A stretch of DNA of 12,708 bases from the IMG/VR virus record IMGVR_UViG_2548876945_000010, positions 1 to 12,708 of that record; one strand, 5' to 3'. Shown here one piece after another: positions 1 through 11,897 of this stretch. The DNA is from a virus (lineage: Duplodnaviria; Heunggongvirae; Uroviricota; Caudoviricetes). The notes under the pieces are model-generated. The model did not search any database. It saw only the letters and a list, made by a program, of their open reading frames with translations, and had not been told where the DNA came from. A program made the translations under genes and the position numbers. Position 1 is the first letter of the stretch. Each line of letters starts with the position of its first letter.

Positions 1-996
1 TTATGGACGCATTATGGACATTCCTGACACCGGGTTAAGAGTCACAGCATCTTGTAAGAAATCCGGTGCAAAGTGTGCGTAGGTCATAGTTTGCTGAATG
101 TTAGAATGACCCAGGATGCGCTGCAATGTGATTATGTTACCTCCATTCATTATAAAATGTGTGGCAAATGTATGCCTCAAAACATGTACTGCTTGTCCGT
201 CAGGTAAATCGGGTTTTACTTCCCTGAGAGCGTTACGCACTTTGTAGTAACTGGCATTAAAAAGCCTGCCTGAATTTTTGGTCTTGATCCGTTTAATCAG
301 GTCCTGCGAAACGGGAATTGTCCTGCGTTTTCCGTTTTTAGTTTTCATAAACGTAACCATCTGGTTAATGATGTGTTCAGCTTTTAAATTAGACACTTCA
401 CTCCAGCGTCCACCAGTAGAAAGGCAGACCAGAGTTGCATTTAATTCATCACCATCAAGCATGGATAACAGCCGCGTAATCTCTTCACTGGACAAAAAAG
501 CCATTTCCGTAACAGCTTCACGTAACCGTTTAATCTCACGGAACGGGTTGTGGGAGTGGTATTCACCGGCGTCAATTAACTTGGTGAACATCCCGCTCAT
601 TATTGCCAGATGTCGATTTACGCTGGCTGGTTTTAGACCATCGTTCATCATTACAACGCGATAATCAGTTATCGTTTTCTTTGTTAGCTGGTCAGCTCTG
701 GACACTCCCATTTCTGCAAATTTGGCGATTATTGTCGTTAAACGCCCCCGTTCAATATCTCCACGCTCATGTGATTTTCCGTGATATATCCACCATCTAC
801 CTAACAACTCTGTAAGAGTTCGGCGGTCGGCTGGTTTCTCCAACCACTCTTTGTTGTGGTAGTTAACCAATACATGACGTTCGAATGCCTGAGCTTCACC
901 TTTAGTTTTAAATTTCCGCCTGATACGTTTTCCATCTGCACCCTGCGGTCTGACGTCCACTTCATAACGACCATCATCGAGCTTTTTAATAGACAT
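1..996 (-). CDS. int: tyrosine site-specific integrase (P2 Int-like)
   Basis: 331-aa ORF, ATG at 996..994, stop at 3..1. N-terminus MSIKKLDDGRYEVDVRP resembles P2-family integrases; C-terminal HVLRHTFATH ... LGHSNIQQTMTYAHF carries the His-x-x-Arg and catalytic Tyr motifs of tyrosine recombinases. GGAGGG Shine-Dalgarno lies upstream on the minus strand. Confidence 0.9.
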   Translation of the reverse strand: MSIKKLDDGRYEVDVRPQGADGKRIRRKFKTKGEAQAFERHVLVNYHNKEWLEKPADRRTLTELLGRWWIYHGKSHERGDIERGRLTTIIAKFAEMGVSRADQLTKKTITDYRVVMMNDGLKPASVNRHLAIMSGMFTKLIDAGEYHSHNPFREIKRLREAVTEMAFLSSEEITRLLSMLDGDELNATLVCLSTGGRWSEVSNLKAEHIINQMVTFMKTKNGKRRTIPVSQDLIKRIKTKNSGRLFNASYYKVRNALREVKPDLPDGQAVHVLRHTFATHFIMNGGNIITLQRILGHSNIQQTMTYAHFAPDFLQDAVTLNPVSGMSIMRP

Positions 997-1089
997 AAAG
1001 CCCTCCGATGACGCTGTTTACTTCTACTACTTGAAAATTAATGCAATTTTCTTTCGTACATTTACTACACACATATGCTGAATAAATCG

Positions 1090-1389
1090 TCAGCCAGTCT
1101 TCTGGTCTGAGTGGTGCAAGGTTGTTGAGTCTTGCCCAATGTGTGCGAGAGCCGGGGCTATTTGTCCAGCTGCTGGATCTGTTTCATCAAACATGAACCA
1201 GTCACGATACTTGCGAAAGCGTGGATGCTTAAACAGCTTCATACCTGCTTCCATAGGCATTTTTGATTTTCCTGATTCATATCCATGATATGTGTAGTAA
1301 TTAATTCCAATTAATTCAGCAAGTTCCTTAGTTTTAAGGCGTTCGGATTCACGGATGAGCTTTAGTTTCTCACTTTGTTCACTTGACAT
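1090..1389 (-). CDS. C: immunity repressor (P2 C-like)
   Basis: The ORF track starts at a TTG (1407); the in-frame ATG at 1389 gives 99 aa (MSSEQSEKLKLIRESERLKTKELAELIG...GQIAPALAHIGQ...HSDQKTG). Length and C-terminal GQIAPALAH..GQ....HSGQKTG pattern match my recollection of P2 C; it has an N-terminal HTH-like segment and a TATAAT/GGAG upstream. Confidence 0.8.
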   Translation of the reverse strand: MSSEQSEKLKLIRESERLKTKELAELIGINYYTYHGYESGKSKMPMEAGMKLFKHPRFRKYRDWFMFDETDPAAGQIAPALAHIGQDSTTLHHSDQKTG

Positions 1390-1497
1390 AATTTTGCTAA
1401 TCTCCAATTATATTGCTACTTGGCAATTTGTGATTCACTCAAAAAGGCTCTAGATGGCTCCAGTTGGTGAATCGCAAATCTTATGGAGGATAGCAAA
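1390..1497. promoter_or_regulatory. early genetic switch region between divergent C and cox (expected Pe/Pc promoters and C operators)
   Basis: About 100-bp AT-rich spacer between divergent repressor and cox ORFs. A perfect TATAAT reads on the minus strand at 1412..1407 upstream of the C start; on the plus strand TTGCTA (1394..1399) and TACTTG (1417..1422) are 17 bp apart. Operators were not identified with confidence. Confidence 0.4.
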
Positions 1498-1854
1498 GTG
1501 ACGACAAATGTAGAAATTTCTTGTCCAACTAGCGATGAGGCAAGTTTCGAAAATGAAGCCAAACGTAAAAGCATTCAGATTTCAGAGCGCCCATCTGATT
1601 TGCTGTCGAAAGAAGGTTTTGCTCTTTACATCGGTAAGACACCACGCGCGGTGGCTGAAATGGCTAAAGCAGGAAAGCTGCCAGCCTTCTACATGACAGA
1701 CCCATTAAAACCAAGAGGGAAAGCTGAATTATGGATTAATCGCCGTGAGTGGGACAAGTACGCAGCCCAACTGGTTGATGAAGCTCCGACAGAATGGCAT
1801 GACTGGAAAAATCGCATTAGTTACAGCAAATCAAGACATGGCCGTGCGGCTTAA
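1498..1854 (+). CDS. cox: Cox-like excisionase/transcriptional regulator with N-terminal extension
   Basis: Core FALYIGKTPRAVAEMAKAGKLPAFYMTDP resembles the P2 Cox HTH region (..GKLPVIDMTDP..). The ORF track starts at ATG 1483, but GGAGGA at 1485..1490 sits 7 nt before an in-frame GTG at 1498, so I call 1498 as start; 1483 remains possible. Confidence 0.6.
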   Translation: MTTNVEISCPTSDEASFENEAKRKSIQISERPSDLLSKEGFALYIGKTPRAVAEMAKAGKLPAFYMTDPLKPRGKAELWINRREWDKYAAQLVDEAPTEWHDWKNRISYSKSRHGRAA

Positions 1855-1864
1855 GGTGGAAAGG

Positions 1865-2035
1865 ATGAACGAGCCTCGTTGTATTGCTCAGTTATTGCGT
1901 AACGAAAGCCCCAGGGCGATTGACTTCACCATCACCCACGGTAAGGGGCGTAAGGGAATCATTATCCGCACCAAAAAACAGAGTCCGTTAAAAAAGGCTC
2001 TGACCTTTCTGAAAAGCCGGAGGGTATGGAAATGA
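1865..2035 (+). CDS. small hypothetical early protein (position of P2 orf78)
   Basis: ATG at 1865 preceded by AAGGTGGAAAGG, 56 aa; its stop TGA (2033..2035) overlaps the ATG at 2032 of the next gene (ATGA coupling). Call is positional only. Confidence 0.35.
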   Translation: MNEPRCIAQLLRNESPRAIDFTITHGKGRKGIIIRTKKQSPLKKALTFLKSRRVWK

Positions 2036-2532
2036 CAGTGATGACGCTCAATCTCGTTGAAAAACAGCCAGCAGCTATGCGCCGGATAATTGGCAAGCAT
2101 CTTGCCGTCCCTCGCTGGCAGGATACATGTGATTATTATAATCAGATGATGGAGCGCGAACGGCTAACGGTTTGCTTTCATGCACAGTTAAAACAGCGTC
2201 ACGCAACGATGCGTTTTGAAGAAATGAACGACGTCGAACGTGAACGACTGGTATGTGCAATTGATGAATTGCGTGGGGCATTCTCAAAACGCCGTCAGGT
2301 CGGTGCAAGTGAGTATGCATATATTAGCTTTTTAACTGTCAGTCAGCGCCGTACTTTATTTATGCATGCCGGATTGACTGAAAAAGAATTCAACCAGCCA
2401 TACTGGCGAATTAATGAAGAATCATGTTACTGGCGTGATGCCTTATTCCGTGCATTACGTGAATTATTCAGCCTGTTTGAGTATGCACCGACAATTCTGA
2501 CGTCGGTAAAACCAGAGCAATATCTGCATTAA
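2032..2532 (+). CDS. P2 gpB-like early replication protein (putative)
   Basis: About 166-aa ORF in the position and of the size of P2 B; GGAGGG lies 8 nt upstream of ATG 2032 (track start 2026 is too close to the SD). Function assigned by synteny and length only. Confidence 0.5.
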   Translation: MTVMTLNLVEKQPAAMRRIIGKHLAVPRWQDTCDYYNQMMERERLTVCFHAQLKQRHATMRFEEMNDVERERLVCAIDELRGAFSKRRQVGASEYAYISFLTVSQRRTLFMHAGLTEKEFNQPYWRINEESCYWRDALFRALRELFSLFEYAPTILTSVKPEQYLH

Positions 2533-2595
2533 GTAATTAACCAGAGTTTTTAACGCACTTAATTGTGCGGGGCTTCTTTTTGCCTGGAGAAAGTC

Positions 2596-2820
2596 ATGCA
2601 TACAGTTTCTGAAAATCAGTGCGGTAAATACGCATTACTGCTGCAACAGGCCAGAACCGAAGCACAGGCCGACGCAGCAACGCGCTTTTCTTCTCATCTT
2701 GACGCCATGATTCGCCACATCACAAAGGCGGAGTTATCCCGCGTAGAGATAGTCGAGCTGCTCAGTCAGGAGTCGGAAAAATTTCACAATATCGGATTGT
2801 CTCGCGGGGAGGTGCTTTGA
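2596..2820 (+). CDS. hypothetical early protein (position of P2 orf80)
   Basis: Track start 2563 is a TTG; ATG at 2596 is preceded by GGAGAAA. 74 aa, no recognisable motif. Confidence 0.5.
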
Positions 2821-3122
2821 TGTCCTGTTCTCGTTCAGTTGTATTACTGAATAACGCCTTAAAAATCACCGTTATGAAAAATGGCGATCTATCTCTTATT
2901 CAACTTGGTCTTGATAAAGAAAAACGCGAAATAACTGAGTCTGTTATCGCGATTTATCAGAACGAATTAAATCTCCTGTCTGATGTGGTCAATTTACTTG
3001 TTAAACGCGCTGTATTTCACAAGCAAATCTCCTCCGTGGATGAACTGACGAAATTAACGACAGAAATTGCCAGCTATTGCGCTGATGAATTTAAAAAACT
3101 TAACGACAAAAGGAGCTGGTAA
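2820..3122 (+). CDS. hypothetical early protein (position of P2 orf81)
   Basis: ATG 2820 overlaps the preceding stop (TGATG) with GAGGTG upstream; 100 aa; stop overlaps the next start (TAATG). Confidence 0.5.
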   Translation: MSCSRSVVLLNNALKITVMKNGDLSLIQLGLDKEKREITESVIAIYQNELNLLSDVVNLLVKRAVFHKQISSVDELTKLTTEIASYCADEFKKLNDKRSW

Positions 3123-3346
3123 TGCCGGACAACGTAGATTTTATTCAGGAACAACAGGCTGAATTACTGGAGCGTCAGATTAACGCGGCAAGGGTAAAAC
3201 ATTGCGGTGCTTCTGCGCTGGTTTGCGAAGAGTGTGACGCGCCAATACCTGCTGCCCGTCGTGCGGCTTATCCGTCAGCCACGCGTTGTGTTTCCTGCCA
3301 GTCAGTCTTTGAAGCAAAAAACAAGCATTACCGGAGAATGGCATGA
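3122..3346 (+). CDS. TraR/DksA-family C4 zinc-finger protein (position of P2 orf82)
   Basis: 74 aa with CxxC-(17)-CxxC (VCEECDAPIPAARRAAYPSATRCVSC) after a helical N-terminus, typical of the phage TraR/DksA zinc-finger family; AGGAG SD upstream. Confidence 0.75.
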   Translation: MPDNVDFIQEQQAELLERQINAARVKHCGASALVCEECDAPIPAARRAAYPSATRCVSCQSVFEAKNKHYRRMA

Positions 3347-3618
3347 GTATTCGTATCGAAATTGGCGAACGTTATGTCGTTACCAGTGACAGCTTTCAGT
3401 TTATTCTCCACGAGAAAAAGAGAGCGGAAAGCGGTAAAAACGCCGGTCAGGAATGGCTGGCGGTGGTTGGTTATTACCCGAAATTAAGCCAGCTCGTTTC
3501 CGGCCTGATGCATCACGATATTCTGACCGGAAGCGCAAAGTCTTTTGCTGATTTAAACGCGCAGGTTGAGCAACTCAGCAGGCGTTGTTCAGAGGCTTTT
3601 GGCTCATATGGCCGTTAA
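3343..3618 (+). CDS. hypothetical early protein (position of P2 orf83)
   Basis: ATG 3343 overlaps the previous stop (ATGA); 91 aa; 3' end overlaps the start of gene A. Confidence 0.5.
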   Translation: MSIRIEIGERYVVTSDSFQFILHEKKRAESGKNAGQEWLAVVGYYPKLSQLVSGLMHHDILTGSAKSFADLNAQVEQLSRRCSEAFGSYGR

Positions 3619-5779
3619 AGCCTCCGGGCGTTTTGTCCCTCCGTCAGCATTTGCCGCAGGCACCGGTAAGACGTTTGCCGGTGCTTATGCATGGAACGCG
3701 CCACGCGAGGCTGTCGGGCGCGAAAGACCCCTTACACGTGATGAGATGCGTCAGGTGCAAGGTGTTTTATCCACGATTAACCGCCTGCCTTACTTTTTGC
3801 GCTCGCTGTTTACTTCACGCTATGACTACATCCGGCGCAATAAAAGCCCGGTACACGGGTTTTATTTCCTCACATCCACTTTTCAGCGTCGTTTATGGCC
3901 GCGCATTGAGCGCGTGAATCAGCGCCATGAAATGAACACCGACGCGTCGTTGCTGTTTCTGGCAGAGCGCGACCAGTATGCGCGCCTGCCGGGGATGAAT
4001 GACAAGGAGCTGAAAAAGTTTGCCGCCCGTATCTCATCACAGCTTTTCATGATGTATGAGGAACTCTGCGATGCCTGGGTGGATGCGCATGGCGAGAAAG
4101 AATCGCTGTTTACGGATGATGCGCAGGCTCACCTCTATGGTCATGTTGCTGGCGCTGCACGTGCTTTCAATATTTCCCCGCTTTACTGGAAAAAATACCG
4201 TAAAGGACAGATGACCACGAGGCAGGCATATTCTGCAATTGCTCGTCTGTTTAACGATGAGTGGTGGACTCATCAGCTTAAAGGCCAGCGTATGCGCTGG
4301 CATGAAGCGTTACTGATAGCTGTCGGGGAGGTCAATAAAGACCGTTCTCCTTATGCCAGTAAACACGCCATTCGTGATGTGCGTGCGCGCCGCCAGGCAA
4401 ATCTGGAATTTCTTAAATCGTGTGACCTTGAAAACAGGGAAACCGGCGAGCGCATCGACCTTATCAGTAAGGTGATGGGCAGTATTTCTAATCCTGAAAT
4501 TCGCCGGATGGAGCTGATGAACACCATTGCCGGTATTGAGCGTTACGCCGCCGCAGAGGGTGATGTGGGGATGTTTATCACGCTGACCGCGCCGTCAAAG
4601 TATCACCCGACACGTCAGGTCAGAAAAGGCGAAAGTAAAACCGTTCAGCTTAATCACGGCTGGAACGATGAGGCATTTAATCCAAAGGATGCGCAGCGTT
4701 ATCTCTGCCGCATCTGGAGCCTGATGCGCACGGCATTCAAGGATAATGATTTACAGGTCTACGGTTTGCGTGTCGTCGAGCCACACCACGACGGAACGCC
4801 GCACTGGCATATGATGCTTTTTTGTAATCCACGCCAGCGTAACCAGATTATTGAAATCATGCGTCGCTACGCGCTCAAAGAGGATGGCGACGAAAGAGGA
4901 GCTGCGCGAAACCGTTTTCAGGCAAAACACCTTAACCGGGGCGGTGCTGCGGGGTATATCGCAAAATACATCTCAAAAAACATCGATGGCTATGCACTGG
5001 ATGGTCAGCTCGATAATGATACCGGCAGGCCGCTGAAAGATACTGCTGCGGCTGTTACCGCATGGGCGTCAACGTGGCGAATTCCGCAATTTAAAACGAT
5101 TGGCCTGCCGACAATGGGGGCTTACCGTGAACTACGCAAATTGCCTCGCGGCGTCAGTATTGCTGATGAGTTTGACGAACGCGTCGAGGCTGCTCGCGCT
5201 GCCGCAGACAGTGGTGATTTTGCGTTGTATATCAGCGCGCAGGGTGGGGCAAATGTCCCGCGCGATTGTCAGACTGTCAGGGTTGCCCGTAGCCCGTCGG
5301 ATGACGTTAACGAGTACGAGGAAGAAGTCGAGAGAGTGGTCGGCATTTACGCGCCGCATCTCGGCGCGCGTCATATTCATATCACCAGAACGACGGACTG
5401 GCGCATTGTGCCGAAAGTTCCGGTCGTTGAGCCTTTGACTTTAAAAAGCGGCATCGCCGCGCCTCGGAGTCCTGTCAATAACTGTGGAAAGTTCACCGGC
5501 GGTGACGTTCCGGTTATGCACCCTACACCGTCTGAGCATGCCGCAGCGGTGTTAAATCTGGTTGATAGTGGTGTTATCGGATGGGATGACCCGGAAGTTG
5601 TGACGGTGCTCAGGAGTGCATTAAAACATGGTGCACCGAGACCGAATTGGCAACAAAGAAACTGCGAACCATTAAAACCGTACCAGATAGCGCCATCAGG
5701 GCGGATGACAAAGGCTGAACGTTCGCAGATTCCACGCATCCATTTCGAGCTGGCACTAATTGGTAAAACCTATCAATAG
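3608..5779 (+). CDS. A: rolling-circle replication initiator endonuclease (P2 gpA-like, HUH superfamily)
   Basis: Large ORF; I place the start at ATG 3608 (MAVKASGRFVPP..., as I recall P2 A) rather than the track ATG 3566. It has an HUH-like motif PHWHMMLF (His codons 4802..4810) and the paired-tyrosine motif GYIAKYISK (Tyr codons 4955..4957 and 4967..4969), similar to phiX174 gpA YxxKY. Confidence 0.85.
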   Translation: MAVKASGRFVPPSAFAAGTGKTFAGAYAWNAPREAVGRERPLTRDEMRQVQGVLSTINRLPYFLRSLFTSRYDYIRRNKSPVHGFYFLTSTFQRRLWPRIERVNQRHEMNTDASLLFLAERDQYARLPGMNDKELKKFAARISSQLFMMYEELCDAWVDAHGEKESLFTDDAQAHLYGHVAGAARAFNISPLYWKKYRKGQMTTRQAYSAIARLFNDEWWTHQLKGQRMRWHEALLIAVGEVNKDRSPYASKHAIRDVRARRQANLEFLKSCDLENRETGERIDLISKVMGSISNPEIRRMELMNTIAGIERYAAAEGDVGMFITLTAPSKYHPTRQVRKGESKTVQLNHGWNDEAFNPKDAQRYLCRIWSLMRTAFKDNDLQVYGLRVVEPHHDGTPHWHMMLFCNPRQRNQIIEIMRRYALKEDGDERGAARNRFQAKHLNRGGAAGYIAKYISKNIDGYALDGQLDNDTGRPLKDTAAAVTAWASTWRIPQFKTIGLPTMGAYRELRKLPRGVSIADEFDERVEAARAAADSGDFALYISAQGGANVPRDCQTVRVARSPSDDVNEYEEEVERVVGIYAPHLGARHIHITRTTDWRIVPKVPVVEPLTLKSGIAAPRSPVNNCGKFTGGDVPVMHPTPSEHAAAVLNLVDSGVIGWDDPEVVTVLRSALKHGAPRPNWQQRNCEPLKPYQIAPSGRMTKAERSQIPRIHFELALIGKTYQ

Positions 5780-5882
5780 TGATTTAATGAAATTTCGGAG
5801 TCATAAATATTGTGTATTTAACTAGATGATTGCAATATAAGTGCTTATTATTTATGCGATTATAGCCATAACGGAGCTGAGT

Positions 5883-6812
5883 ATGAGTGTTGCAAGGCAT
5901 CATCATTTTTTATCCCAATGTTATTTGAAAGGGTTTACAAGTAATGGGGGGAAAAAATCAAAATTAACTGTAATAGATTTAAAGGAGCGCAAAACCTTTG
6001 AGAGTAATACTCGCAATGTCGGGGGGGTTAGAGATTTCAACCGATTAGAATTGGATGGAGTTGACCCAAACTATCTCGAGAGTTCTCTTGCAGAGTTTGA
6101 AGGCAGTGTCGCTACTCATTTAAGAAAACTTGAGGAGGGGGGCGAGTTTTCAGGCGAAACCAAAGATGTTATTCTGGAGTTTATTTCCTTATTGGCAATA
6201 CGTACGCCTGCTCAGCGAGAACATTTATCATCTCCATTGAAACAAATAGCAAAGTTTATCATGAAATCCTCAGTTAGTTCGGCTGAGCGTTGGGACGATT
6301 GCAAATTAGCTTATGAGAAAGAAATGGGTGAGTCTTTGCCATATGATCTCGCTTACGAAAAAATTAAAAATTTTGTGGATGGGGATAATTTCGAAATCAA
6401 TGTAATCAGAGAGTTCATGATAGATATGGAAATGAAATGTGTACCTGTTATCACCAAGTTGTTGCATCAACGCAACTGGTCTCTTATGACCATATCTGAT
6501 GGGCAAGGGTCATTTATAACTTCAGATAACCCAGTTTGCTTAATGTGGACTAATCCTGAATTAGCACGAGGCCCTTATTCCCCCGGGTTTGGTGTAAAAG
6601 ACACTTTAGTTTTGTTCCCAGTATCAAAAAACCTTCTTTTGGCGGGCGAGTTTGATGGTCATGAGGGTGTATTCAGTTGTAATGAGGAGCAGGCTGCGGT
6701 CTTCAATACTTCAGTCATTCGGCATACCGCAGAAAGAATATTTTCATCTAATGATAATTTCAAATTTTTAGACTCATCTAAAAAAATGAAGCAAGGCAAA
6801 AGCCTGGTTTGA
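5883..6812 (+). CDS. AT-rich cargo gene at the P2 tin/old hotspot; DUF4238-like candidate anti-phage defence protein
   Basis: 309-aa ORF from ATG 5883 (GGAG upstream; the track GTG at 5841 is less likely). N-terminus MSVARHHHFLSQCYLKGF fits the HHxxxQxYLKxF signature I associate with DUF4238. Strongly AT-rich unlike the flanking phage genes, and located between the A stop and cos. Confidence 0.65.
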   Translation: MSVARHHHFLSQCYLKGFTSNGGKKSKLTVIDLKERKTFESNTRNVGGVRDFNRLELDGVDPNYLESSLAEFEGSVATHLRKLEEGGEFSGETKDVILEFISLLAIRTPAQREHLSSPLKQIAKFIMKSSVSSAERWDDCKLAYEKEMGESLPYDLAYEKIKNFVDGDNFEINVIREFMIDMEMKCVPVITKLLHQRNWSLMTISDGQGSFITSDNPVCLMWTNPELARGPYSPGFGVKDTLVLFPVSKNLLLAGEFDGHEGVFSCNEEQAAVFNTSVIRHTAERIFSSNDNFKFLDSSKKMKQGKSLV

Positions 6813-6949
6813 TAGCGGTTTTTCTATGATTTTACTAGGAGAATTCTACCCTTAATCAGTGTGTTTAAAATGATTAATTGTCATAACATTTTTTCATTTT
6901 TAGGTGTGCCTAGAAATGCATTCAATTGCATGCGTTTTCCTCCCCTGTT

Positions 6950-7093
6950 GCGTCTGAGCGCCACCAGTGCCGGCGCGCCTCCGGTGTATTCGTGCACCTG
7001 CATTAAAACCGACCCATAAAGCGGGCAGGCGAGGCGGGGAAAGCACTGCGCGCTGGCGGTGGTGCTGATTTTATTTTTTCAGCGTCTGAGCGC
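6950..7093. repeat. 12-bp direct repeat GCGTCTGAGCGC flanking cos (6950..6961 and 7082..7093)
   Basis: Exact 12-bp copies lie 67 bp upstream and 36 bp downstream of the cohesive-end sequence; possible terminase recognition elements. Confidence 0.4.
7028..7046. other. cos: cos cohesive-end site (P2-type 19-nt GGCGAGGCGGGGAAAGCAC)
   Basis: Exact match to the P2 19-nt cohesive end as I recall it, in the expected place about 170 bp from the 3' end of portal gene Q. Confidence 0.75.
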
Positions 7094-7188
7094 GTCGTGG
7101 CGGCGTTTAGATTTTGCGCCGGGGCGTTGCTGTGTCTGCGGGCTGTTTTGTGCGGTGGTGAGCGTGTGAGGGCGTGATGACTGGGTGT

Positions 7189-7210
7189 AAAAAAGCCGCC
7201 CGCAGGCGGC
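7189..7210 (-). terminator. intrinsic terminator downstream of Q (end of leftward P-Q operon)
   Basis: On the minus strand: GCCGCC-TGCG-GGCGGC hairpin (7210..7195) followed by TTTTTT (7194..7189), starting 5 nt after the Q stop codon. Confidence 0.6.
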
Positions 7211-7215
7211 GATGT

Positions 7216-8250
7216 TCAGCCGTTGTCAGTGTCCAGTGAGTAGTTTTTAAAGCGGATGACCTCCTGACCGAGCCAGCCGTTTATCTCGCGGATCCTGTCC
7301 TGTAACGGGATAAGCTCATTGCGGACAAAGACCTTTGCCACTTTCTCAATATCACCCAGCGACCCGACGTTCTCCGGCTTGCCGCCCATCAACTGAAAGG
7401 GGATGCGGTGCGCGTCCAGCAGGTCAGCGGCGCTGGCTTTTTTGATATTAAAAAAATCGTCCTTCGTTGCCACTTCACTGAGCGGGATAATTTTAATGCC
7501 GTCGGCTTTTCCCTGCGGGGCATAGAGAAACAGATTTTTAAAGTTGTTGCGGCCTTTCGACTTGACCATGTTTTCGCGAAGCATTTCGATATCGTTGCGA
7601 TCCTGCACGGCATCAGTGACGTACATGATGTATCCGGCATGTGCGCCGTTTTCGTAATACTTGCGGCGGAACAGCGTGGCTGACTCATTCAGCCAGGCAG
7701 AGTTAAGGGCGCTGAGATATTCCGGCATGCCGTACAGCTCCTGATTAATATCCGGCTCCAGCAGATGAAACACGGAGCCGGGCGCGAAAGGTGTCGGCTC
7801 GTTGAAGGACGGCACCCACCAGTAAACATCCTCCTCCACGCCACGGCGGGTATATTTTGCCGGTGAGGTTTCCAGTCTGATGACCTTACCGGTGGTGCTG
7901 TAACGCTTTTCCAGAAACGCATTACCGAACACCAGAAAATCCAGCGCAAAGCGGCTGAAATCCTGCTGGGAAAGCCACGGATGCGGGATAAATGTCGAGG
8001 CCAGAATATTACGTTTGACGTAAATCGGTGAGCTGTGATGCACGGCAGCACGCAGGCTTTTTGCCAGACCGGTAAAGCTGACCGGTGGCTCATACCATCT
8101 GCCGTTACTGATGCACTCGACGTAATCCAGAATGTCACGGCGGTCGAGTACCGGCACCGGCTCGCCAAAGGTGAATGCTTCCATTTTCGGGGCGTTGGCG
8201 GTCATTTTTTTTGCCGCAGGTTGCGGTGTTTTCCCTTTTTTCTTGCTCAT
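7216..8250 (-). CDS. Q: portal protein (P2 gpQ-like)
   Basis: 344-aa ORF, ATG at 8250..8248 with GGAG upstream, stop 7218..7216. Length equals P2 Q and it sits next to cos and the terminase gene; its start overlaps the P stop (TGATG). Confidence 0.9.
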   Translation of the reverse strand: MSKKKGKTPQPAAKKMTANAPKMEAFTFGEPVPVLDRRDILDYVECISNGRWYEPPVSFTGLAKSLRAAVHHSSPIYVKRNILASTFIPHPWLSQQDFSRFALDFLVFGNAFLEKRYSTTGKVIRLETSPAKYTRRGVEEDVYWWVPSFNEPTPFAPGSVFHLLEPDINQELYGMPEYLSALNSAWLNESATLFRRKYYENGAHAGYIMYVTDAVQDRNDIEMLRENMVKSKGRNNFKNLFLYAPQGKADGIKIIPLSEVATKDDFFNIKKASAADLLDAHRIPFQLMGGKPENVGSLGDIEKVAKVFVRNELIPLQDRIREINGWLGQEVIRFKNYSLDTDNG

Positions 8251-9311
8251 CAGTAAAACTCCAGAATGGTGGATGTCAGCGGGGTGCTGATACCGGCGGT
8301 GAGTGGCTCATTTAACAGGGCGTGCATGGTCGCCCAGGCGAGGTCGGCGTGGCTGGCTTCCTCGCTGCGGCTGGCCTCATAGGTGGCGCTGCGCCCGCTG
8401 CTGGTCATGGTCTTGCGGATAGCCATAAACGAGCTGGTGATGTCGGTGGCGCTGACGTCATATTCCAGACAGCCACGGCGGATAACGTCTTTTGCCTTGA
8501 GCACCATTGCGGTTTTCATTTCCGGCGTGTAGCGGATATCACGCGCGGCGGGATAGAACGAGCGCACGAGCTGGAACACGCCGACACCGAGGCCGGTGGC
8601 ATCAATACCGATGTATTCGACGTTATATTTTTCGGTGAGTTTGCGGATGGATTCCGCCTGGGTGGCAAAGTCCATACCTTTCCACTGGTGACGCTCAAGT
8701 ATTCTGAATTTGCCACCGGCCACCACCGGCGGTGCCAGTACCACGCATCCGGCGCTGTCGCCACGGTGTGACGGGTCGTAACCAATCCATACCGGTCGGG
8801 AGCCGAACGGATTTGCGGCAAACGGCGCATAGTCTTCCCATTCTTCCAGCGTGTCGACCATGCAGCGTTGCAGCTCCTCGAACGGGAATACCGATGCCTT
8901 GTCATCAACAAATTCACACATGAACAGGTTTTTAAAATCGTCGGCGCTGTTTTCGCGTTTAAGCTGCTCAATGTCGAACAATGTGCAGCCACCTTTCAGG
9001 GCGTCCTCAATGGTGACAATCTGCCGCCACTGGCCGTCCGCACAGAGAAGACCTCCGGCAAGGGCGTTATGACTGACGTCGATTTCCACGCGTTCGGCGG
9101 CGCTGGCGCGTCCCCGGTTGAACAGTTCACCTGACCAGAACGGGTAGGCGTCGTGCGCCAGCGTGGACGGGGTGGAGAAATAGGTCGAGCGCAGGTGACT
9201 CTGTGAGGCCATACCTGATGCCACCTTACGCAGTACCTGAAAAGCCGCGCTGCATCGTGAGTCAAATCTGATGAAGACCTTTGCGCTACAGGGCGACACG
9301 CTTGACGCCAT
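8250..9311 (-). CDS. P: terminase large subunit (P2 gpP-like), C-terminal portion only; N-terminal ATPase region apparently missing
   Basis: 353-aa ORF directly upstream of and coupled to Q. Contains VWIGYDPSHRGDSAGCVVL, like the start of a terminase nuclease domain; no Walker A (GxxxxGKT/S) is present. P2 P is about 590 aa as I recall, and the first ~15-20 codons of this ORF overlap the X gene on the opposite strand so are probably not P-derived. Confidence 0.6.
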   Translation of the reverse strand: MASSVSPCSAKVFIRFDSRCSAAFQVLRKVASGMASQSHLRSTYFSTPSTLAHDAYPFWSGELFNRGRASAAERVEIDVSHNALAGGLLCADGQWRQIVTIEDALKGGCTLFDIEQLKRENSADDFKNLFMCEFVDDKASVFPFEELQRCMVDTLEEWEDYAPFAANPFGSRPVWIGYDPSHRGDSAGCVVLAPPVVAGGKFRILERHQWKGMDFATQAESIRKLTEKYNVEYIGIDATGLGVGVFQLVRSFYPAARDIRYTPEMKTAMVLKAKDVIRRGCLEYDVSATDITSSFMAIRKTMTSSGRSATYEASRSEEASHADLAWATMHALLNEPLTAGISTPLTSTILEFY

Positions 9312-11109: not shown

Positions 11110-11152
11110 CCCGCAGACGAACGGCGATTTAAGTGCCGATAAGCGGAATTAA
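10964..11152 (+). CDS. lysC: LysC, Rz1-like outer-membrane lipoprotein spanin
   Basis: 62-aa ORF starting inside lysB in another frame; signal peptide plus lipobox (MKTKIFAAGTVLTCLMLCAGC) and a Pro-rich mature part. Confidence 0.7.
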   Translation: MKTKIFAAGTVLTCLMLCAGCTSAPPALTPVIVANACPKVSLCPMPGSDPQTNGDLSADKRN

Positions 11153-11762: not shown

Positions 11763-11897
11763 ATGCCGATTATCGACCTGAACCAGCTACCCGCACCGGA
11801 TGTGGTCGAGGAGCTGGACTTTGAAACCATTCTTGCTGAACGCAAGGCGACACTGATTTCCCTTTACCGAATACAGCGTCGTGACCGGAGGCTCTGA
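11763..11897 (+). pseudogene. J: baseplate protein J, internally deleted/truncated (44 codons)
   Basis: ATG 11763 encodes MPIIDLNQLPAPDVVEELDFETILAERKATLISLY... (J-like N-terminus) but stops at 11895..11897, overlapping the I start (TGATG); P2 J is about 302 aa as recalled. Below the ORF-track length cutoff, found by reading. Confidence 0.5.

Follow-up and report, generated by a model that had tools for sequence, protein, structure and literature searches.

What does the AT-rich DNA between replication gene A and the cos site of a P2-like prophage contribute to the cell that carries it, and how much of its mode of action can be read from its single product? The question is posed by a stretch of 12,708 nucleotides, hereafter the window, which represents the left part of a P2-like (Peduovirus) prophage, with the integrase gene (1-996, minus strand) at its start. 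At 98% identity, the window aligns with Escherichia phage pro483 (Peduovirus), and its positions 1-9243 are 99.97% identical to the prophage of E. coli GPEC1209. A preliminary description of this DNA had singled out about 1.15 kb of AT-rich sequence between the stop codon of A (5779) and the GC-rich cos region as a variable cargo island with one candidate defence gene. The AT-rich DNA is present just where that description had put it, and it is framed by the following elements.

3608-5779, plus strand: replication gene A (gpA), which forms the left, conserved edge of the hotspot (Pfam Phage_GPA, E 7.4e-123)
5780-6935, no strand assigned: AT-rich variable cargo island, a single-gene cassette, recognised by its GC content and its variability across genomes
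7028-7046, no strand assigned: cos cohesive-end 19-mer GGCGAGGCGGGGAAAGCAC, an exact string match
7216-8250, minus strand: portal gene Q, which forms the right, conserved edge of the hotspot (Pfam Phage_portal, E 1.5e-13)

In the 99.97%-identical GPEC1209 prophage, the counterpart of gpA is annotated as a replication endonuclease, and in the matching genomes Q is annotated as a phage portal protein; a terminator scan places a terminator-like hairpin of Q at 7195-7210. The cos 19-mer is also found within the P2 and P4 cos-proximal sequences of Table S2 of the principal study of this hotspot (Rousset et al. 2022, PMC9122126). At 37.4%, the GC content of 5780-6935 falls below that of the remaining window (52.3%), of gpA (52.9%) and of 6936-7215 (61.4%), and GC3 is 0.36 in the ORF of the island as against 0.54 in gpA. 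When the window is compared with other P2-like prophages, similarity is lost from 5697-5741 and regained at 6917-6986, so that the island limits given in the preliminary description are accurate to about 40-80 bp; the last codons of gpA are themselves part of the variable zone.

Is this interval truly a slot for exchangeable cargo? The gpA-gpQ interval of P2-like phages is a diversity hotspot in which 1,650 gene arrangements were counted among 18,150 loci (Rousset et al. 2022, PMC9122126), in agreement with the earlier view of the A-to-cos slot as a site of accessory P2-family cargo such as tin and old. Our own comparison took window 5000-7700 as the query (2.7 kb, comprising the island and both flanks) and covered 5,426 complete E. 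coli genomes, of which 1,765 gave matches to the A or Q flanks; the cassette was present at ≥99.7% identity in only 14 of the 5,426. With the cassette in 14 of the 1,765 flank-positive genomes, the gene is not a core gene and the interval behaves as the variable slot that had been postulated. Among the cargos that other prophages carry at the same place are a Panacea-domain gene paired with one for DUF2975, and a DUF3850 gene accompanied by genes for hypothetical proteins; furthermore, among 50,697 deposited phage genomes, a tblastn homologue of the island protein was found in pro483 alone. The history of the cassette is illuminated by IMG/VR locus L025, in which positions 1008-2304 correspond to window 5759-7054: the cassette and the cos-proximal DNA are 87% identical between the two, whereas identity drops to 76-77% in the flanking A and Q genes. 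This discrepancy indicates that the cassette moves between diverged P2-like phages at the gpA-cos site, and, to judge from the extent of the more similar segment, the cassette and the adjoining cos segment may have been exchanged as one unit.

The content of the cassette is simple, with two features that define its gene.

5873-5876, plus strand: Shine-Dalgarno sequence GGAG, 6 nt before the ATG, kept in 4 of 4 aligned alleles
5883-6812, plus strand: DUF4238 defence gene (Rst_DUF4238 type), assigned by Pfam and PADLOC matches and by near-identity to the pFR101 protein

The single ORF for a 309-aa protein that had been reported at 5883-6812 was found as described, with GGAG upstream, and is the sole family-matched ORF within 5780-6935. 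Its product (309 aa, 34.9 kDa, pI 6.0) has the N-terminus MSVARHHHFLSQCYLKGF, and it was from the signature in this segment that membership of DUF4238 had been proposed. The assignment is borne out by the match to Pfam DUF4238 (PF14022; E 4.2e-39, 135.1 bits against a cut-off of 27), which spans residues 7-291 of the protein and positions 2-280 of the 281 of the model, and by the full-length match (positions 1-309 of 309) to the PADLOC model DUF4238-Pers (PDLC03000; E 1.5e-219, 725.5 bits), whose gene name is presumably also the one used by DefenseFinder. The fallback reading that had been offered, an uncharacterised hotspot gene, thus falls away, given that the DUF4238 assignment holds. As had been noted by eye, nuclease, ATPase, TIR and transmembrane motifs are absent, none being found by profile scans and hydropathy analysis; the highest 19-residue Kyte-Doolittle mean is 1.09, with no transmembrane segment, and the protein is predicted to be soluble. 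The identical gene of E. coli GPEC1209 encodes the protein with accession WP_001515549.1, which is also annotated in the deposited phage pro483 and appears as a "DUF4238" entry in Table S5A of the hotspot study (Rousset et al. 2022, PMC9122126).

This last fact leads directly to the validated member of the family. A single DUF4238 gene cloned from a P2-like prophage of E. coli TA007 (pFR101) confers strong resistance to T7, in an assay with native upstream DNA, a low-copy plasmid and an E. coli K-12 host; the phenotype is narrow (T7 alone of the eight phages tested) and the molecular function was stated to be unknown, and eight further systems were cloned from the P2 hotspot in the same work (Rousset et al. 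2022, PMC9122126). The preliminary description had referred both to the hotspot literature and to a single-gene DUF4238 defence of unknown mechanism, in either case correctly (PMC9122126). The window protein and the pFR101 protein (Table S2A) align without gaps, with 284 of 309 residues identical (92%) and 302 of 309 similar (98%), and the two alleles are 90-92% identical at the DNA level; the protein of IMG/VR locus L026 is identical to that of pFR101. Both proteins have 309 aa, and both are the products of single genes in the gpA-cos position of a P2-like prophage, with like upstream blocks and ribosome-binding sites, whereas the core genes of the host prophage differ by about 23% in TA007-type loci. 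The 25 substitutions that separate the window protein from the validated one are concentrated in the helical region and the C-terminal tail, and none affects a conserved position. With dS of 0.40 and dN of 0.041, dN/dS is 0.10-0.11, a pattern of substitution by which the gene is seen to be maintained under purifying selection.

Does the window allele also retain the means for its expression? Two further elements of the cassette are relevant here.

5801-5831, plus strand: the 31-bp block TCATAAATATTGTGTATTTAACTAGATGATT, 52-82 bp upstream of the start codon
6867-6900, plus strand: imperfect, AT-rich hairpin formed by inverted repeat I8 (arms 6867-6881 and 6886-6900, 80% complementary), with a T-rich run after it

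The upstream block is identical in the window, in the pFR101 clone and in L025, in each case within a spacer that has diverged around it, and it falls within the native upstream DNA that is sufficient for activity in pFR101. We infer that it is a candidate promoter or operator, although a scan for the sigma-70 consensus finds no site upstream of the DUF4238 gene, 5801-5831 included. The hairpin at 6867-6900, which was not called by the terminator scan, might likewise serve as a weak transcription stop for the cassette. An Rfam scan of the window returned no family.

Taken at the level of sequence, then, the 92% identity to the pFR101 protein and the listing of WP_001515549.1 in Table S5A make this locus an already catalogued allele of a known, validated system rather than a discovery, and the gene itself is very likely to be functional in defence. 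With the same high confidence, we regard 5780-6935 as a horizontally exchanged cargo cassette in the gpA-cos-gpQ hotspot that carries a natural allele of Rst_DUF4238. The locus should be annotated as Rst_DUF4238 within the P2 hotspot, the original call having been correct for a system already catalogued; what interest remains lies in the mechanism of the family.

The tin and old genes of phage P2 likewise lie between A and cos; they are accessory genes which P2 itself can do without and which serve to exclude unrelated phages, but neither shows any sequence or domain relationship to the DUF4238 gene. Old of P2 is a nuclease of the ATPase-TOPRIM type, while in the DUF4238 protein neither an ATPase nor a nuclease domain can be recognised. 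PARIS (AriA/AriB), helicase plus DUF2290, and hydrolase plus TM are likewise cos-adjacent systems of the P4 and P2 hotspots that block T7 in the same assay. All three, however, are two-gene systems in which ATPase, TOPRIM, helicase or membrane components can be recognised, and for PARIS a trigger, Ocr, is known. The DUF4238 system, in contrast, is a single soluble protein for which neither a trigger nor an effector domain is known.

How widespread is the family, and does it travel with partners? A word-indexed search yielded 155 relatives at 41-54% identity, mostly from Gammaproteobacteria, and an exhaustive profile search recovered 7,552 clusters at E ≤0.001, with 854 at E ≤1e-30. The top 150 representatives are stand-alone proteins of about 300-350 aa, and the members of a second subfamily, which was seeded with a viral-contig protein only 21% identical to the window protein and has hosts among Chloroflexi, Geothrix, candidate division WWE3 and Rhodocyclales, are of the same size (about 300-350 aa). 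No domain fusion was detected among these 150 top representatives or among 120 members of the second subfamily, the latter matching PF14022 only. Neighbourhoods were compared for relatives 44-54% identical to the window protein and for one more distant copy (37% identical) from Burkholderia, which is on a conjugative plasmid. In E. coli, the relative is part of an integrative element and adjoins type I RM and GmrSD genes; in Vibrio, it is in a prophage, next to a KAP NTPase and HicAB; in Pseudomonas, one locus adjoins Gabija and another Hachiman; in Citrobacter, the gene is in an islet with a putative AbiC; and in Enterobacter, it is on a phage-plasmid. Across eight contexts of the relatives of the window protein there is no conserved neighbour gene, and the fact that the neighbours differ in each context supports the notion of a self-sufficient, mobile, defence-linked gene. 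DUF4238 accordingly stands as a validated defence family of at least 7,500 sequence clusters across bacteria, which is carried by prophages, phage-plasmids, conjugative plasmids and defence islands.

What kind of protein could this be? The AlphaFold model (pLDDT 89.6, pTM 0.86) consists of an N-terminal motif, a beta hairpin (28-41), a conserved loop (42-63), a six-helix bundle (64-195) and a beta-rich C-terminal part (198-304). In an alignment of 56 sequences, conservation peaks at residues 1-15, 46-60, 211-225 and 241-255 and reaches its minimum in helices 109-195 and the C-terminal tail; the conserved motifs are the N-terminal xHxxxQxYLxxF, RNVxGxR in the 45-50 loop and FITSDxP in the beta core. 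Thirteen polar or aromatic residues are common to subfamilies that are only about 20% identical, namely H8, Q12, Y14, N45, R50, E73, R112, E183, R/K197, W199, T213, D215 and N275. The model has no PDB neighbour, and a PDB search with the profile of the 56 homologues produced chance-level matches only (NusG, E 0.49). Likewise, a Pfam and PADLOC scan of the 56 aligned members (E up to 5) gave no cross-family match in more than two members, NCBIfam has no match for the protein, the PHROGs family to which it belongs is of unknown function, and neither sequence nor structure shows detectable similarity to PD-(D/E)xK, HNH, HEPN, TIR, SIR2 or P-loop effector folds. The only significant structural match, in the BFVD viral library (Foldseek E 2.8e-10), is V9IQH5, an uncharacterised protein of Stenotrophomonas phage Smp131, a P2-like phage. 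No mechanism, trigger or structure for DUF4238 was reported in the literature searched.

These observations can be accommodated in the following scenario. The protein, a soluble polypeptide of 35 kDa by prediction, would act alone as both sensor and effector; its core is beta-rich in the model, made up of the N-terminal hairpin and the C-terminal strands, with the helical bundle 64-195 as an insertion; and the conserved polar residues would line a catalytic, small-ligand or nucleic-acid-binding pocket, so that the protein would be an enzyme of a fold that is absent from the PDB. The polar set is kept across phyla that have no phages in common, which argues for conserved chemistry and not for an interface with a phage protein. 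In the lysogen, the protein would be silent and would be switched on by a cue specific to T7 infection, whereupon it would act on a nucleic acid or nucleotide that phage replication requires, either destroying or modifying it, and infection would be stopped directly or by abortive infection. The parts of this scenario differ in their plausibility. That the putative conserved pocket is catalytic has about an even chance of being right; abortive infection as the outcome is somewhat less probable than that, though a serious possibility; and a nucleic acid or nucleotide as the substrate is a tentative suggestion. Equally speculative is the scenario as a whole, in which DUF4238 would be a new class of enzyme with the 13 invariant residues as its active site, turned by a T7 cue upon a nucleic acid or nucleotide, and the window allele would be a natural variant in specificity. 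If it were true, the 25 substitutions, which lie mainly in the poorly conserved helical region and C-terminal tail, might shift the range of phages that are sensed.

The slot itself suggests a quite different reading, namely that the protein is a non-catalytic, stoichiometric inhibitor which, like Tin, poisons one essential protein, in this case of T7 (for example its RNA polymerase, the single-strand binding protein gp2.5 or the helicase-primase gp4). P2 Tin, whose gene occupies the same slot in P2, excludes T-even phages by binding and poisoning one essential phage protein. An inhibitor would be compatible with the failure to detect any known catalytic fold or motif in the DUF4238 protein, with the low conservation of helices 109-195 and of the C-terminal tail, as for a target-recognition surface, and with the narrow published phenotype (T7 alone of eight phages; PMC9122126). 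What it does not readily accommodate is the retention of 13 polar or aromatic residues across Proteobacteria, Chloroflexi, Geothrix and candidate division WWE3: the hosts of subfamilies only about 20% identical share no T7-like phages, a conserved phage-protein interface is therefore unlikely, and we consider the inhibitor a rather unlikely explanation. Could DUF4238 be instead a sensor or adaptor that needs a separate effector, here one encoded by the E. coli K-12 host? Pairing with a distinct effector is suggested by a 2024 survey of E. coli TIR defence, in which one of the validated TIR systems is reported to include a DUF4238 domain as well, the NADase residues of TIR being required (PMC11350192). 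Within the subfamily of the window protein, however, no neighbour is conserved in eight independent contexts, no fused effector domain occurs in the 270 relatives listed, and the DUF4238 gene alone is sufficient when cloned (PMC9122126), all of which makes a dependent sensor improbable.

The condition of the prophage raises the further question of whether the gene is anything more than a passenger. Comparison with the intact GPEC1209 prophage reveals three internal deletions (4.26, 2.2 and 0.76 kb) in the window.

9239-9243: deletion junction
11140-11141: deletion junction
11862-11868: deletion junction

With these deletions, the large terminase gene P has lost its 5' part, L and J most of their length, lysC its end and V its start, and O, N, M, R, S and a gene for a hypothetical protein are missing altogether; what is left of the terminase gene (8250-9311) retains positions 110-215 of the Pfam model of the ATPase domain only. 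Kept despite the deletions are int, the early genes, A, the DUF4238 gene and Q, along with cos. The junctions are absent from all complete E. coli genomes and IMG/VR loci compared, so the window is either a uniquely decayed prophage or an assembly artefact. A silent or non-defensive passenger, that is, unexpressed AT-rich DNA or an inactive allele, would not be out of place in a prophage that has lost its capsid, scaffold and small terminase genes and part of the large terminase, tail and baseplate genes. The island is strongly AT-rich, AT-rich foreign DNA is commonly silenced by H-NS, and the sigma-70 scan detects no consensus promoter upstream of the gene. Yet the ORF is intact, and its protein is identical to copies in intact prophages and in phage pro483; the gene is under purifying selection (dN/dS 0.10); and the upstream block and the Shine-Dalgarno sequence are as in the pFR101 clone, which is active from its native promoter. 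A mere passenger is accordingly very improbable, and the reading of the cassette as a defence gene, with the enzyme as our tentative proposal for its mechanism, is the one that we retain. To the study of that mechanism the present analysis adds a confident model without a PDB neighbour, a set of residues conserved across distant subfamilies that can serve as targets for mutation, and a second natural allele, 8% different, for comparison of phage range with the pFR101 allele.

Several minor observations concern the immediate surroundings of the cassette. Two short ORFs run across the boundary between the cassette and cos.

6861-7019, plus strand: short ORF across the cassette/cos boundary, with no Pfam family match
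6881-7003, minus strand: short ORF across the same boundary, with no Pfam family match

One of the two is ORF12 of pro483, where it is annotated as a hypothetical protein, and a comparable small ORF may form part of the "DUF4238 + hypothetical" arrangement in Table S5A (Rousset et al. 2022, PMC9122126). It is probable that neither of the two is a real gene and that both reflect annotation noise. A sister prophage with the same DUF4238 cassette (L018) contains an extra 1.3 kb at 7062-8352 of its sequence, just past cos on the Q side, which corresponds to a point between window positions 7054 and 7074. The insertion encodes a product of 333 aa with hydrophobic C-terminal stretches that resemble, by eye, transmembrane helices, and that has neither a PADLOC match nor a Pfam match above threshold; the gene for this protein is a second uncharacterised cargo gene in the same hotspot.

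Other DUF4238 genes are found in other slots. Distant members (30-35% identical) are present as accessory genes outside the gpA-cos slot in three GC-rich phage contigs, L028 (1674-2630), L030 (6001-6948) and L031 (5947-6945); in the first two the gene lies directly beside a homologue of Phage_GPD (tail gene D), and the ORF layout of L031 is as in L028 and L030. Together with the Smp131 match, these loci suggest that a related lineage of phages acquired the family at another slot. These genes and V9IQH5 are just 12-36% identical to the window protein. On a 17-kb contig (L036, 686-1615), an 84%-identical allele (P0002) keeps the ribosome-binding site and part of the upstream block, T[CT]ATAAATA, and is followed downstream by genes for an ECF sigma factor and DsbD/DsbC-type thiol-disulfide proteins; there is no portal gene after it, and this allele is therefore apparently outside the P2 hotspot. 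Finally, L032 (239-3601) contains a DUF4238 gene with 28% identity, next to ORFs whose products resemble, by eye, a secretin (415 aa) and a Zot-type P-loop assembly protein (345 aa), an arrangement that suggests an inovirus-like element.
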